64,000 nucleotides of DNA, from assembly GCA_001244265.2 (NCBI GenBank), contig CDLV01000009.1:1736001-1800000 (forward strand). Direction: 5' to 3'. Position 1 is the stretch's first letter; the number at the start of each line of letters is the position of its first letter. The notes below the pieces were generated by a model. The model did not search any database. It saw nothing but the letters and a program-made list of their open reading frames with translations, and was not told the DNA's origin. This document shows, one piece after another, positions 2,786 through 39,159 of this stretch. A program made the translations under genes and the position numbers. Source of the DNA: Microbotryum violaceum. Lineage: Eukaryota.

Positions 2786-3905
2786 CGATGTGGCGATAGG
2801 TCGTGAACAGCGACTTGTCCGAGACCATGTGCGAGGTGGCCCCGAGTCAACGACGAAAGAGTTGGTGCGAAGCTGGCGGCGACGAGCGAGAAGACCGGTG
2901 GCGATACATCCGACATGGTGTTGCGAGTTGGCGATCGAGTTCGCCGTGTCGGCCTTTTTGCCGTTCCGAGAGCCTTTTTGCAGTCGAAAGACCAGTGATT
3001 CTGCTTGCAGGAGCGACAGGGTCCTGGCGGCGGGTGTTTTGCTCTCACAGGGCACTCCGCCACACGGTGCGAAGGGCTGCGACAGGCGAGACACTTGGGA
3101 CGGGTAGGACGTGACGACGACGAGGCAAGAAGGGCCGATTGGGTGCCGGGGACGTTGGTGGACCGGAGTTGAACACGCATGCGGTCGGCGAGCGAATCGA
3201 TGGCAGGAAGAGCTCGTTGAGTGCGCTGTTCATCGGTGAATGACGCCTTGAAACTCTCGAGGGACGGGTGAGCGATGGCGAGGAGTGTGGCAAGAACATC
3301 ATTGATAGTCGTCTTCGTATCGATGATTTCTTGCGCAATAGCTTTGAACTCCATGATCCAGCCGTCGAATTCGCCAACGGTGCCAGGCATGGGCCGGAAA
3401 CTCCATAGTCGGGAGAAGAGCTCGAGCGTGCGAGTGGCGTCGTCAGGAGCATACCGCGATTTCAGCGTCGAGTACATTTTGGGCGCTGTGAGGTCAGCGG
3501 TAGGGATTGCGTCGAGGACTGCCGAGACTTCGGCCGAGTCGATCGAGTTCGCAAGAAGCTCGCGGGCCACGACATCGCGGGCGGAGCGTTGTGAAGGAGT
3601 CCAGTCGACGGGCACGATGCCGTCGAGGACGTACGAGCGGATGTCGTCCGCTAGGCACAGGCGAAGTTGGCGTGTCCAATTTGCAAATGTCTTTGGCCCA
3701 TCCAAGCGTGCGTGCTTGGGAAAGGCGGGGCGGGTGGTACTAGACGACGTGGTGGTTGTGACAGTGCCGGACGCTGCAGCGGTGAGACCCGACAGCAGCG
3801 ATGTAAGGGCGGCAAGCTGGTCGGCGGGAAATGTCGGGTGGACACCCGTCGCTAGGGGTGGCGACGTGTCGTCCATGCCAGCGGTAGCTCGTTGGGCTTA
3901 TAACC

Positions 3906-4288
3906 TATAAGACGATCACCACAACTGTCAGGAGAGGTTGAGAGTCGAACAGCAGTGATGTATTTCAGCATACCTATAAGACGATCACCACAACTGTCAG
4001 GAGAGGTTGAGAGTCGAACAGCAGTGATGAAAAGGAAGCTAAGAAACAAAAGAGGGGCCCGCGCTGGGATAGGCCCAGCCGCGGGTGAAATCGCTAGGGC
4101 GCTGAGGCAGCTGCGCGCGTCTAAGTCGCCACCTCAAGGGGGCGGCCTAGCGGGCGCGCGCCCGAGTCCGCTGGCGCCTGCTCGCTGAGGCAGTCGTGCG
4201 CGCCTAAGTCCCCACCGCAAGGGGGCGGGCTAGCGGGTGCGCGCGACGACCGAGGCGCCTCTGTCGAGCTGAGAGTGGACTCTTCACA
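3906..4288 (-). repeat. 5' LTR of family A (383 bp, TG...TA) with internal 58-bp direct repeat
   Basis: Homologous to LTRs at 10237-10549 and 13460-13773; repeat copies 3903-3960 and 3972-4029; abuts the PBS. Confidence 0.92.
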
Positions 4289-35100: not shown

Positions 35101-38100
35101 TGCCACCATGCCCGCCCACTTGGGCTGGTTTCAACGCATGGATGAATCGAGCCATGGTTCTCGTCAACCATGTTCAAATGGCCCAGCTAGACCTTGAACA
35201 GGCCATCGCGGCCGGGGCCCTTGACGACTTGCCGCACGTCTTTGATGGATGGCGCACAACGTTCTACGCGATGAACATTTGTGACAACAGGCTGCCGGCG
35301 CGTCAAACAAATCTTTGCGTCGATGGAGACTGTTGCTCGGACTTTGCGCAACAAGTCAAACCCGGCCCTCGTAGCAAAGGCGGTCGCACCGACCACAAGC
35401 GCTGCTCCTGGCAAAAAGGGGAAATGGGATCGGTCTGGTCCTGCCCCGAGCAACTGCCCGGCTTGCGGTCAAGGCAAACACTGGCTCGACAAGTGTCCGG
35501 ACTCGCGCAAGCAAGCCAAATACGTCGAGCTTAGGAATGCCATGAAGGCACTCCAAGGCGCGTCATCATCGACTACAACCTCTCTCATGGCCGCCGCGGA
35601 AACGTCCAAGGATCAAGACATGCCCTTCTTTTCTTCTGCCACGTTTGTCAACGTCGGACAACCTGACATCCTTCTGCTGGACTCGGCGTCGGCGTGCCAT
35701 GTTGTCAACAATGCGTCCTTCTTTGACGGTCCCCTTTCACCTACCCAGCAAGTCCTGCAGGGTCTGGGGGGAACGTTGAGGGCCTCGGGAATCGGCTCGA
35801 TCAAGCTCGTCTCCGATACGGGTACCACGTTCACCCTCAACGACGTGATCTACGCTCCCGAAAGCCCGGCTAACCTCATCTCGGTCCGGGCCTTCGACCG
35901 CAAAGGTGTTCGCATCACCTTCGAACGCGGGCACGTTGAGCTCCGCACGCCGCAAGGTTGCTTTGCTACAGCATCAGCCATCGCGTCCTGCGTTTACAAA
36001 CTCAATGCTTCAGTCCGCGCTGGCAGCAAAGGTGCGCTACCCTCGCTCGTCTCCATCAAGTCCACTAGGCTACCTTTACTTACCCTTCACCGCCGCTACG
36101 GCCACGGCTCTGTCCAGACACTCAAAAAACTGGCGGCCTCCGGCCAGGTGGAGGGTTTGGATTGGCCCTATAGTGACTTCGAGTGTGTAGACTTCTCTTG
36201 CAATGCCTGCCTTGCCTCCAAGGCCCATCGTTTGCCTTTCCCCTCTTCGTCGTCGCATGCAGTGGAACCACTTGCGTTGGTGCACTCGGACGTCTTATCT
36301 TTCCCCAAGGAATCCTTAAGCCATAAGCGATACCTCGTCGCGTTCATTGACGACTTCTCGAGGAAGACTTGGGTTTACCCCATCGGGCACAAGAGCGAGG
36401 TCTTTCAGACATTCAAGGATTGGCTCTTGGAGATCGAAAACGCCACGGGTCGCAGGGTCAAAACACTTCGCTCGGACAACGGTGGCAAGTATGTCTCTAC
36501 TGCTTTCAACGGCTATTGCGTGGCACGCGGAATTCGTCGCAAATTGACCATACCGTACATGCCTGAGCAAAACGGACGGGCTGAGCGAGCCAACTGGTCA
36601 ATCGTTGAGGGCACCCTTTCTCTCCTGTCCCACTTGGGACTCCCACAATTGTGCTGGGATGAGGCGGCTATGTGTTACATCCACGTTAAAAACCTATCGC
36701 CCCACACGGCTCTTGGTGGAGACGTCCCAGACCGTTGATGGTTGGGCCACACACCAGGTGTTAGGGGTCTTTGGGCATTTGGTTGTCGCGCTTGGACCAC
36801 CGTGCCGGCTCATAGACAGGACAAGCTCGATCCAAAAGGGATTCCTCTGGTCTTTGTTGGGCACGATCGACACGCAAAAGCCTACCGTCTTCTTGACCCT
36901 TCCTCAATGCGTGTGAGACTGGGCCGCAATGTGACATTCATAGAAACCGAGTTCCCCTTCGCAATTGCGCCCGCCCGAGTGACGCAGCCGTCCATCCCGG
37001 GTTACAGCCCCCTGCTTCCACCTGTCCAAGCTCCAACACCTGTCGAGCCTCCCCCACAGCCACCGGCCCCAACGCCTGTCGAGGCACCCGCGTCGCCCGC
37101 ATCGACCAGCTCGGCCGTCAACAACAACACCTCATTGACCACGAGCGCAACAATGGAGTCAGCCGTGAACCTGCCGCAACCACCCCCAGATCCAGCTCCA
37201 CTTGCCACAGTCAAGCCGGGTTGGGAGTACGGCGACGTTGCCAAGGTTGGTCCCGATCCAGGGAAGTACGGTGAAATCGACACTCAAAACATCATTGATG
37301 GCCCCCGGACTTGCCGCCAACCCGTTCCCACCATGATCACGCGGGAACAGACGGTCGAAGACCCCGACGGACCCTCCGCTTCTTTCAAGAGTCTGCTCCT
37401 TGCCTTCTCATCAACCAAAGCCGGCTTCGTGGATCATGACCTGTTGGTTGTTTGCGATCCGGCAAATTGGGGCGACGTCATTCGAATGGGACAAGAGGAC
37501 GTTCTGGGTGTTCCGGACTAAACGCAACCAGCATGGTGACATCACCGATCACAAGGCCCAACTTGTTGCTCACGGATGTGCCCAATGCCCTGGCCTTGAC
37601 TTTGAGAAGACCTACGCCCCTGACGTCAAATTCACGTCCATTCAAGCCCTCATTGCACTCGCCGTGGCCAACGGCTATCACGTCCATCAAGCCGATGTCA
37701 ATAAGGCGTACTTACACGGCAAACTTGACAAGCCTCTCTACATGCGCGTCCCTCAGGGCATCAACCTGCCCAGCAAGATCCTCAAGCTGTCCAAATCCAT
37801 CTACGGCCTTTGCCAGGCCGGCACCATCTGGAACGCCAAGATTGACTCTACTCTGCGGTCCCTTGGATACGTCCCCACCAGGTCGGACATCTGTATCTAC
37901 CGCCCCGAACACAATGGGCACTTACACTATATTGCCTTGTACGTTGACGACCTGCTTTTGGTTGGTCCCTCAACCGCCGAAATTGACCGGGTGCTTGATG
38001 CGCTGGAACTCGCATACGGCATCAAACGTCTCGGACCTGCTGAATATATTCTAGGCATCCAAGTCAAACGCGGACAAGATGGTTCTATCACACTCTCACA

Positions 38101-39159
38101 AGAGCGCTACCTTCGGGACATCCTTGCCAGGTTCCAATTCATCGATGCCAAGCCGGCAAGTATCCCAATGCAGCCAGGTGGTGTCCTTGACTTCGAGGAT
38201 TTGGCGGCCACTCCTCACGATTGTACACGCTACTTGCAGGCCATTGGTTCATTGATGTACGCAGCAGTAGGAACTCGTCCGGACCTCGCCTTCGTGGTCA
38301 GCTACCTCGCTCGCTTCTCCCAGCAGCCTGGCCCGGAGCATTGGACAGCCATCAAGCAGGTCCTCCATTACATCAAAGGCACGCTGGGCTTGGGTCTCAC
38401 CTATCGCAAGACCAGCCAACCACTCCATGGCTACTCGGACGCAAATTGGGGCGCCTGTTTGACCACCTCGCGTTTGACCATGGGTTACGCGTTCATCTAC
38501 TCAGGAGGTGCCATCACTTGGTGCTCGAAGCGCGAGCACAGAGTCGCCAAGTCTACCACCGATGCCAAGTACCTCTCCCTATTGTATACCAGTGGTGACG
38601 CCATCCACCTCAGCGAGCTTCTGGCCAAACTCGGTCATCCCGTCCCGGGCCCTGTCATCATCTACAGCAACAACCAAGGATCTCTCGCCCTCGCTCAACA
38701 CCCAACCAACCACCAAGGGTCTCGTCACGTGCGCATCTCCGAGCATTACGTCCGCGAACGCGTAGCCGAGAAGGAGATCGACGTCGTTTATATTGCCACC
38801 GCGGACATGTTTGCCGACATCTTCACCAAGGCCTTGGGTCCCAAACTGTTCCTCTTCCATTGGGAAAACTTGGGTTTGCGGGTTGCAGTGGTATGACAGC
38901 ACGGGGGGGTGTCAAAAGGGTATTACTGTTTCATCCCACTTAGAATAGTTTAGTATCTAGTTGTTGATATTAGCCGCGCGCGCGCCCTTAGCGCTTCTCT
39001 CTCTGCTCCAACTATCTTTACTATCTTCTTCGGCTCTCGTACTTACGTACATCGTGCCTTGGGCCTCGGGTTAGTCTTGCAATGCTAGGAACTATCTTTA
39101 CTATCTTCTTTGGCTCTTGTACTTACGTACACTGTGCCTCGGGCCTCAGGTTCCTAAAA
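29107..39159 (+). mobile_element. Ty1/copia family C, both LTRs present, interrupted by a LINE
   Basis: LTRs 29107-29390 and 38910-39159; TSD GTCAA 29102-29106 and 39160-39164; PBS GGTTATGAGCCC 29391-29402; G-run [48 protein letters not shown]. Confidence 0.96.
29852..35001 (+). mobile_element. Near full-length L1/Tx1-like LINE (ORF1 from 29858; ORF2 APE-RT-zinc finger 31264-34832; poly-A)
   Basis: TSD AGGGCG 29846-29851 and 35002-35007; ORF1 CVFCRSAAHVRKDC, CKSCASTSHASQHC; APE ANVQS, LSET, SIYAP, RLDRIY; RT DFEKAYD, GVRQGDPLAP, LFADD; CVMC...H...CP; A-tail 34991-35001. Several 1-nt frameshifts. Confidence 0.95.

Follow-up and report, generated by a model that had tools for sequence, protein, structure and literature searches.

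Reverse transcription of a spliced RNA normally erases its introns, and retroelements are thought either to avoid the splicing of their genomic RNA or to be intron-less. Spliced RNAs are known for long terminal repeat (LTR) retrotransposons such as copia of Drosophila, BARE of barley and Ogre of the legumes, and splice donors in the R region are known in foamy viruses and in bovine leukaemia virus (BLV). The present analysis concerns a stretch of 64,000 nucleotides from Microbotryum violaceum (contig CDLV01000009.1, positions 1,736,001 to 1,800,000; hereafter referred to as the window), in which LTRs of four Ty1/copia families (A, B, C and D), together with the upstream region of a further element (G), carry an intron-like segment that begins with a 5' splice-site-like hexamer and ends in a copy (X') of the very sequence that precedes it (X, the putative exon 1). 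The organisation of these segments suggests a spliceosomal intron whose 3' half may be a DNA copy of exon 1 and which may be rebuilt during reverse transcription.

A cryptic intron in the Tf2 element of Schizosaccharomyces pombe and intron-linked RNA interference in Cryptococcus are described in the accessible part of PMC7175516. The introns of copia, BARE, Ogre, Tf2 and the Cryptococcus elements resemble those proposed here in that they belong to LTR elements, are spliced by the host and affect expression or silencing; they differ in lying in the internal region and not wholly in the LTR upstream of the primer-binding site (PBS), and no exon-1 copy at the 3' end has been reported for them. 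As is proposed for this locus, the LTR of human T-cell leukaemia virus type 1 (HTLV-1) has a 5' splice site in its transcribed portion, so that each end of the provirus carries one, and a vector fragment of the HTLV-1 LTR is described in the available sections of 10.1101/2023.01.28.526022 as containing an intron with donor and acceptor. HTLV-1, the deltaretroviruses and the foamy viruses differ from the present case since their unspliced RNA is packaged, the 3' end of the intron carries no exon-1 copy and no rebuilding role has been proposed. The split-intron retroviral vectors (Ismail et al. 2000, as excerpted in PMC3182074) use the logic of LTR copying to create an intron in the provirus, as is proposed here; however, in that excerpt they are engineered, their acceptor follows the packaging signal and is not part of the LTR, the intron arises a single time instead of being renewed from a spliced template and no exon-1 repeat is involved. 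In the lariat/Dbr1 model of Ty1, too, an RNA reaction of the splicing type is connected with the first strand transfer of a Ty1/copia element, but that model is disputed, joins the RNA 5' end to the U3/R border by a 2'-5' branch and, in the portion of PMC5399748 at hand, predicts no direct repeat. In the full-text literature, subscription journals and supplements being outside the scope of the search, we found neither a report of an intron within an LTR that terminates in a copy of exon 1 nor one of an intron regenerated through strand transfer.

The anatomy of the elements was determined by a self-BLAST of the window, a search for PBS motifs and direct reading, and the coordinates of the features are collected in Table 1. 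On the sense strand of the element, which is the strand concerned in every case, a CT-rich tract is followed by X (22-60 nt, with AG at its end), the hexamer GTNNGY, a spacer that is unique and measures 11-47 nt, X' with YAG at its end, a tail that takes up the 0-23 nt between X' and the PBS wherever a PBS is known, and the PBS itself. This layout was found in the LTRs of A, B, C and D and in the upstream region of G, and occupies four of the six PBS-adjacent LTR ends of the window; a sixth family, L001, was added by the search of metagenome contigs described below. In all six families the right edge of X coincides with the 5' splice-site consensus AG/GTNNGY (the solidus marks the putative junction) and the left edge is preceded by a CT-rich tract. 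The grammar of CT tract, exon-like X, donor, spacer with TGCAAT, copy of X, short tail and PBS is a robust feature, observed in six families from two sources. A preliminary description of the locus had placed the layout in A, B, G, D and C and had reported single-X LTRs at 10237-10549, 13460-13773 and 59791-59993; direct reading confirmed all of these placements, with a CT-rich tract before every X. In the case of D the layout stood as described and the LTR itself had to be corrected, being split by an 831-bp solo LTR (H).

Table 1. Positions of the X/X' features, the elements that carry them and related LTRs (PBS, primer-binding site; TSD, target-site duplication; positions are those of the window, except for L001, where they are those of its own contig)
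Feature	Position	Strand	Remarks
A (copy 1), 5' LTR	3906-4288	-	TGTGAAGAG...CTTATA; contains duplicated X
A, X (putative exon 1 / R)	3974-4029	-	56 nt, directly after CT-rich tract, ends TATAG
A, intron-like segment	3905-3973	-	69 nt, TATAG/GTATGC; 11-13-nt spacer with ATG; X' ending TATAG
A, PBS	3893-3905	-	GGTTATAAGCCCA; X' abuts PBS
A-family LTR, single X	10237-10549	-	G-run polypurine tract before it
A-family LTR, single X	13460-13773	+	opposite orientation
LTR E, relative of A	19452-19670	+	single X, without intron-like segment; PBS 19671-19683
B, complete copia element	4596-9184	-	3' LTR 4596-4886; 5' LTR 8956-9184; TSD CAAAC; PBS 8943-8955
B, 3' LTR, X	4744-4791	-	48 nt ending TTCAG; 48/48 identical to 4619-4666
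B, 3' LTR, intron-like segment	4619-4743	-	125 nt, TTCAG/GTGTGT
B, 5' LTR, X	9042-9089	-	
B, 5' LTR, intron-like segment	8980-9041	-	62 nt; X' with 15-nt deletion, CAG retained
G, X	9391-9414	-	24 nt after CT-rich tract; X vs X' 23/24
G, intron-like segment	9333-9390	-	58 nt, TCCAG/GTGAGC...CTGAT...CCAG
D, 5' LTR, first part	20527-20617	+	broken by solo LTR H
Solo LTR H	20623-21453		831 bp, TG..CA, TSD GCACC; inside D 5' LTR
D, 5' LTR, second part	21454-21578	+	CT tract, X, intron-like segment, 9-nt tail
D, X	21479-21500	+	22 nt ending GTCAG; X vs X' 19/22
D, intron-like segment	21501-21569	+	69 nt, GTAAGT...TGCAAT...CTGAC; X' ending TTAG
D, PBS	21579-21588	+	TGGTAGCGTC; PBS type unlike that of A, B, C
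LTR F	26185-26433	+	without layout; PBS 26434-26446; sits in D 3' LTR
C, copia element	29115-39159	+	5' LTR 29115-29390; 3' LTR 38908-39159; TSD GTCAA; PBS 29391-29403
C, 5' LTR, X	29241-29300	+	60 nt; X vs X' 62/63
C, 5' LTR, intron-like segment	29301-29380	+	80 nt, CTCAG/GTTAGT; spacer with TTGCAAT and ATG; X' ending CAG; 10-nt tail, PBS
C, 3' LTR, X	39010-39069	+	final AG mutated to GG; X vs X' 57/63
C, 3' LTR, intron-like segment	39070-39149	+	80 nt
Solo LTR, relative of C	59791-59993	+	74-83% identity; TSD AGAAG; single X, then tail GTTCTAATA
L001, layout	X 461-494		CT tract; CAG/GTAAGC; 28-30-nt spacer (depending on where the repeat block starts); X' 34/34 with CTGAC
L001, end of layout	CAG/ at 556; PBS at 566		9-nt tail ending CA; PBS GGTTATGAGCC

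B, D, G and L001 have repeats that stop right at the AG, and those of A and C extend 2-3 nt past it; the repeat block of A (3972-4029 and 3903-3960) is identical at 58 of 58 positions. In the 3' LTR of B the segment has a 30-nt spacer in which TTGCAAT occurs; the 5' part of X is then repeated in two extra 24-nt copies before a full X' ending in CAG, and a 23-nt tail that ends in CA follows. The spacers of A, C and D contain an upstream ATG that splicing would remove, and no ATG is present in any X. Six columns vary among the four 63-nt copies of X and X' in the two C LTRs (29241-29383 and 39010-39152), five of them private to one copy and the sixth, split two versus two at a TCG site, read as two parallel changes. 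Because the variable columns are nearly all private changes, the four copies were probably identical when C inserted; its LTRs are now 87% alike over 277 aligned positions, gaps included. Five of the seven substitutions inferred among these copies are C>T in a TCG context, which we take to be the repeat-associated mutation pattern reported for Pucciniomycotina such as Microbotryum.

A further element of the layout is the hexamer TGCAAT, located 3-8 nt upstream of X' in B (4714-4719, - strand), C (29309-29314, + strand) and D (21534-21539, + strand), in place of which A has TGAAAT, 1 nt before X'. A post-hoc test of this placement in B, C and D gave a value of ~0.01 (2,089 of 200,000 random draws) before L001 was considered; in L001, inspected after the motif had been noticed in the other three, TGCAAT (~514-519) stands 5 nt before X'. 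Its position is fixed relative to the start of X' and not to either splice site, and it may be part of a poly(A) signal or of a landing signal. A role as branch point was ruled out, the distance to the AG ranging from ~32 to ~98 nt.

The likelihood of meeting such an arrangement by chance was estimated from the background of the window, where AGGTNNGY occurs 35 times per 64,000 positions on each strand. Every AGGTNNGY site was scanned for a repeat of the preceding 20-mer, matching at 16 or more of the 20 positions, ending in AG and located 45-160 nt downstream. A downstream repeat of this kind exists at 676 of the 64,000 window positions, and six of the 70 AGGTNNGY sites have one, namely those of A, B, G, D and C and one within a 111-bp tandem repeat. 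Donors fit GTNNGY in 5/5 window families as against 13.5% of AGGT sites, and a strict CTRAY motif is found 10-40 nt before the AG in three of the five (A, D and G), the background being 7.2%. A scan blind to motifs recovered 14 local repeat pairs in the window, and neither the U3 repeats of A (83 bp) and E (39 bp) nor the 62-bp and 32-bp arrays end in AG/GT. The layout is thus beyond chance.

The 111-bp repeat is a perfect twofold tandem duplication (2564-2785) in the coding region of A and keeps the frame (37 codons). Read on the + strand, antisense to A, its unit starts with GTGTGC and ends with GCGAG, giving a junction AG/GTGTGC that fits AG/GTNNGY; the junction is due either to chance (roughly 1 in 1000 per repeat) or to another process of which it is a sign.

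Contigs from four runs were also compared with the window; their kind, RNA or DNA, is only guessed, and a spliced RNA and a single-X DNA copy look alike in them. A contig of run X2 represents another copy of D (21454-22204), in which all listed indels fall outside X, spacer and X'. This copy bears on an alternative according to which the repeats are ordinary tandem duplications produced by replication slippage after insertion and are intron-like by accident. Such an event would suit A, in which the duplication is perfect and stands in a copy with the second perfect tandem duplication, that of 111 bp, A, like D, being represented in the window by a single usable LTR. Slippage is, however, contradicted for B, C, D and L001: the layout is present in both LTRs of B and of C and begins, with X and donor, in both LTRs of L001, so that it has passed through reverse transcription, and the second copy of D keeps it without indels. 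The copies are not true tandems either, because a unique spacer lies between X and X', and the statistics of the boundaries, together with the U3 tandem repeats of A and E that do not end in AG/GT, speak against coincidence. Slippage is therefore considered very improbable as a general explanation.

The donors (A GTATGC, B GTGTGT, C GTTAGT, D GTAAGT, G GTGAGC and L001 GTAAGC) all follow AG, and a relic of a different signal could conceivably produce the same letters, if X with the adjoining GGT were an old LTR end and an old PBS start, the former LTR/PBS junction having been duplicated and then decayed. The LTRs end in CA or TA and the PBS starts with GGT, so that an LTR/PBS junction does read AG/GT, and the first bases of the spacers, GGTAT in A and GGTTAG in C, come close to the GGTTAT with which the PBS starts. 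The genuine LTR/PBS junctions (GTTATA, GTTACG, GTTATG and GTTGTA), however, do not fit GTNNGY, whereas all of the spacers do. Furthermore, a tail of 9-23 nt separates X' from the PBS in B, C, D and L001 and is kept in the single-X forms of B and the C relative, which implies that X is not at the LTR end. An origin from an old PBS, contradicted for B, C, D and L001, has in our estimate a next to negligible probability.

Introns may also be gained by tandem duplication of an AGGT-containing segment, in which case the intron terminates in a copy of the last part of the exon before it, and its removal by splicing brings back the sequence as it was before the duplication. The exon-end copy at the 3' end of the intron-like segment is a point of likeness, but after such a duplication the start of the spacer would recur behind X'. 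A pure duplication of this type was rejected, since the sequence after X' does not repeat the spacer start: the first copy is followed by GTGTGT and the second by CACATC in B, by GTGAGC and TGTCAA in G, by GTAAGT and TCTCTT in D and by GTAAGC and ATCTTC in L001, and only 2-3 nt are shared in A and C. Three other sources of the layout were considered and rejected. Flanking DNA captured from a read-through RNA fails as the tail sequence is not carried on in the spacers of B and C, a small inserted element for which X would be the target-site duplication (TSD) is incompatible with an X of 22-60 nt and spacers of 11-47 nt, and a reverse transcriptase (RT) reading through a lariat branch cannot yield an exon-1 copy.

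The splice-like signals were compared with introns of the host genes, which start after 40 kb and include the NOG1 GTPase (41.9-44.6 kb) and a helicase C-terminal domain (~49-50 kb), Pfam matches having been obtained for three of the ten host-region open reading frames (ORFs) tested. Five introns of NOG1 (41960-43451) were placed by the reading-frame continuity of the conserved protein. They measure 85, 78, 70, 87 and 70 nt, have the donors GTGAGC, GTGAAT, GTAAGT, GTAGGT and GTCAGT, four of which fit GTNNGY, and carry the branch motifs CTAAC, CTGAC, TTGAC, CTGAT and TTGAC at 22-34 nt from the AG. Every LTR segment terminates in TAG or CAG, and the lengths are 58, 62, 69, 69, 80 and 125 nt, a range that brackets the 70-87 nt of the NOG1 introns and agrees with the earlier remark that they resemble short host introns in size. 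A CTGAC or CTGAT is located 13-23 nt before the AG in A (CTGAC, 23 nt from the end of the segment), D and G and ~15 nt before it in L001 (by eye); C has only CTTAC, 24 nt before the AG, and B only TTGAT or CTCAT. Judged by these signals the LTR segments of 58-125 nt appear to fit the host-intron picture, and it is reasonably probable that they are spliced at all. In the genes neighbouring NOG1, further ORF-compatible candidate introns of 63-89 nt were seen, placed without a homology check.

Related elements were sought with an alignment of the pol C-termini of C, A and B, which was scanned against metagenome contigs and returned 80 loci with 452,633 bases in total. The repeat scan was then applied to both strands of these loci with the intron-length window widened to 40-200 nt, and matched one of 144 sense-strand AGGTNNGY sites, that of L001, and none of 199 antisense sites. 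L001, the closest relative (53% amino-acid identity), comes from an unrelated metagenome contig and has an intact ORF of 1495 aa, its two LTRs agreeing at 98.1%. In pol DNA it shares 65-70% identity with A, B and C, no similarity was found between its LTR and the LTRs of these three, and by these comparisons it represents a separate, sixth family. The 3' LTR begins like the 5' LTR, with X and donor present, before the contig ends. The L001 contig opens with the end of a pol gene and a polypurine tract before the '5' LTR', and its overlapping ends (1-565 and 5083-5565) are 98% alike; it is either a tandem array sharing LTRs or a contig wrapped around a multi-copy element.

The PBS-motif matches in the 80 loci were all on the sense strand (50/50), and 42 distinct PBS-adjacent upstream regions were retained after hits with <120 nt upstream and duplicates were dropped, a few internal non-LTR matches being kept. 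Three of the 42 have a local repeat, and in L001 alone does the repeat adjoin the PBS, which implies that a general sloppiness of the reverse transcriptase in this lineage is not the cause. A relaxed scan of the 80 loci found, besides L001, only true tandem arrays with AGGT inside the unit. The layout belongs to elements in GC-rich hosts like that of the window.

These surveys are relevant to an alternative without splicing, according to which the R/U5 end was duplicated by an out-of-register minus-strand transfer and the copies were kept alike by unequal transfers, GTNNGY being a U1 small nuclear ribonucleoprotein (snRNP) site, for instance one that damps a poly(A) signal, or having no role. 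Repeats in R invite such transfers and units can be gained or lost; the extra 24-nt units of B and a 62-bp array of three units (60738-60923) show instability of this sort, and a left edge at the putative RNA 5' end would suit any strong-stop origin. Splice donors in the retroviral R region are known as well, as the accessible part of a study on HTLV-1 indicates (10.1101/2023.01.28.526022). Nevertheless, out-of-register transfer gives no reason for a repeat that ends at AG/ in four of six families and at most 3 nt off in the other two, nor for branch-like motifs at host-like distances or host-like sizes, and no such repeats occur in the other 41 PBS-adjacent regions of related elements. We hold it to be quite improbable.

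The preliminary description had treated the five families as unrelated, which is overstated, as would be a convergent origin. Of eight long ORFs of A, B, C and D that were tested, seven showed Ty1/copia domains (Pfam: Pol_BBD, gag_pre-integrs, rve, RVT_2), so that all four are Ty1/copia, and A, B and C constitute one copia lineage, with a common PBS type and an RT identity of 50-60% (57% between C and A and 50-60% between C and B, as against 34% between C and D). The same PBS type occurs in E and F. Cross-family alignments of the LTRs gave no matches in the self-BLAST of the window. G had likewise been presented as an LTR family and is better regarded as a candidate LTR, in which the CT tract and the repeat are accompanied by an ORF further downstream whose cysteine-histidine motif is zinc-knuckle-like (read by eye), and neither a second LTR copy nor a pol is present in the window. 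A 12-mer, ATTAGCCGCGCG, is common to U3 of B (~4835-4850, - strand) and C (~29176-29190, + strand), ~45-70 nt upstream of X, and D and F have ATTAGC; it is possibly a shared promoter element of this copia lineage.

The two edges of X suggest how X' may have arisen. Fungal transcription typically starts just after a CT tract, as the preliminary description had assumed; the left edge of X is thus the expected transcript start and the right edge a 5' splice-site consensus, which makes X' look like a cDNA of exon 1. As the whole segment precedes the PBS, X' would most simply come from strong-stop DNA synthesised on a spliced leader. In B, the two extra partial copies likewise start from the first base of X, as would suit repeated jumps from the RNA 5' end. 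The segments would then be short U2-type introns in the R/U5 part of Ty1/copia LTRs, lying entirely upstream of the PBS. X would be exon 1, transcribed from just past the CT-rich tract and ending at the 5' splice site, and the spacer would be the sole unique part of the intron, the remainder being X', which would have been copied from exon 1 as DNA and would have the 3' splice site at its end.

The proposed cycle would begin with splicing of the 5' leader to X, tail and PBS. The transcript of the 3' LTR would end inside or just after X' and would retain U3-X-GT-spacer-X' with no usable acceptor; a poly(A) site inside X' would deprive the 3' copy of its acceptor and so render it unspliceable, and the poly(A) signal of the LTR would lie within the intron that is removed at the 5' end. 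Minus-strand strong-stop DNA, the complement of X and tail, would pair with X' and be extended through the spacer, X and U3, whereby both new LTRs would regain the intron and X' would be rewritten from X. The spliced RNA would be the normal genomic RNA, 'U3' would include exon 1 and the 5' part of the intron, and 'R' would be X'. If the strong-stop DNA paired with the first X, or if the 3' copy were spliced, a single-X intron-less LTR would result.

Even in decayed LTRs, X and X' match completely or almost completely. The LTRs cannot be aligned between families and yet X resembles X' within each of them, which implies either repeated renewal or repeated rebirth with a donor already in place after X; both of these readings need splicing as well as strand transfer. 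The self-regenerating intron of the preliminary description is therefore upheld in part: the sequence fits an intron with a reverse-transcribed X', and the splicing, the start and poly(A) sites, the strand transfer and the overwriting of X' are conjectural. That the segments are real leader introns, with a 3' half that is a cDNA copy of exon 1 and is rebuilt through strong-stop DNA on an unspliced 3' LTR transcript, is put forward tentatively, our doubt slightly exceeding our confidence. The wider claim, that a copia lineage keeps a spliceosomal intron in its LTR, with reverse transcription rebuilding it in each cycle and X' rewritten from exon 1, is held with somewhat greater reserve.

A real intron might also be carried passively if, as in retroviruses, replication proceeded from unspliced RNA, X' being a scar of the intron's origin with no role in its upkeep. 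Unspliced RNA would copy X, spacer and X' faithfully without any special step, the single-X relatives (E and the solo LTR at 59791-59993) may be plainly ancestral, and X and X' are drifting apart in D and G. Passive carriage is nonetheless unlikely in our judgement, as it leaves unexplained why all six segments end in a copy of exon 1 and why, despite unalignable LTRs, X and X' are the same in A, B and L001 and were so in C at insertion, and as it requires six separate recent births, each with a good donor at the start of the spacer.

Single-X forms equal to the predicted spliced product were found for A, B, G and the C relative. The 5' LTR of A is 94% identical to 10236-10549 and 93% to 13460-13773 (self-BLAST). 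In one contig of run X4 the exact 58 nt of G are skipped (joint 9342->9401), and in another contig of that run X of B is joined directly to tail and PBS (joint 8976->4744), as it also is at a loose end in X2 at 4744. Single-X forms look alike whether they are ancestral or derived by intron loss. In several families the single-X form is found alongside the double-X form, and at least two copies of D have the double X.

Several observations weigh against a regenerated intron. The outgroup LTRs (E for A and the solo LTR for C) have a single X, so that by parsimony the duplication would have been gained separately in each family, and E, F and H are without the layout. The two LTRs of B differ exactly in X', which needs slippage or decay afterwards, and X and X' are not identical in D (19/22) and G (23/24). 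The reading frames of the window copies of A, B, C and D are broken. As the A copy with a perfect X/X' pair also has the perfect 111-bp duplication, a recent event at the DNA level is possible in A, and the antisense AG/GTGTGC of that 111-bp repeat implies that such boundaries can arise without a sense-strand intron. With regard to the splice signals, B and C have no strict CTRAY motif, the donors of A, B and C are absent among the five NOG1 donors and the YAG of X' does not constitute independent evidence because X' copies X.

Intron-dependent accumulation of mRNA has been described in several basidiomycetes, as far as the accessible parts of the reports go (PMC3744415, PMC4935854, PMC8379801, PMC7017817). 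Regeneration of the intron from a spliced template, if true, would be a new solution to the conflict between splicing and intron loss, would explain how copia elements are expressed without losing their introns in fungi that need introns for mRNA accumulation and would provide a built-in source of intron-less 'dead-end' LTRs. Even if regeneration were wrong, the conserved grammar would remain as a feature for which no description was found. L001, being an intact element, is suited to testing.

The elements discussed above form a nest of decayed LTR retrotransposons that makes up the first 39 kb of the window, with a GC content of 0.50-0.61. G is an older element into which B and A have inserted, the 3' LTR of D is cut after 71 bp by the inserted element F, and C has inserted next to or into F. 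The empty site of B (joint 4590->9185) and the D LTR without H (joint 20617->21454), both of them differences of the DNA type, are each represented in contigs of three of the four runs. A PBS was located for A, B, C, D, E and F by the motif search, and G-rich tracts precede the 3' LTRs. In Ty1/copia elements the PBS is usually complementary to an internal part or to the 3' end of the initiator tRNA-Met. The portion of PMC7773854 consulted describes the copia group as mostly using a tRNA-Met primer. A tRNA scan of the window found no tRNA genes.

Three further local rearrangements were noted. The threefold 62-bp tandem array at 60738-60923 is 97% conserved, and on the - strand its unit resembles the end of X of B followed by GTGT (CCACTGCC..AAC..GTTCAG/GTGT, with two small gaps); no LTR context was recognised around it. 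In contigs of runs X3 and X4, 498 bp of the gag region of B (8102-8599) are skipped, with a joint ambiguity of 5 nt, and these contigs represent deletion derivatives of B in another genome. An inverted copy of 97% identity links 9480-10237 with 10386-11143, the axis of the palindrome lying at ~10237-10386, and the arm at 10386-11143 contains the end of the A pol, the polypurine G-run and part of the LTR.

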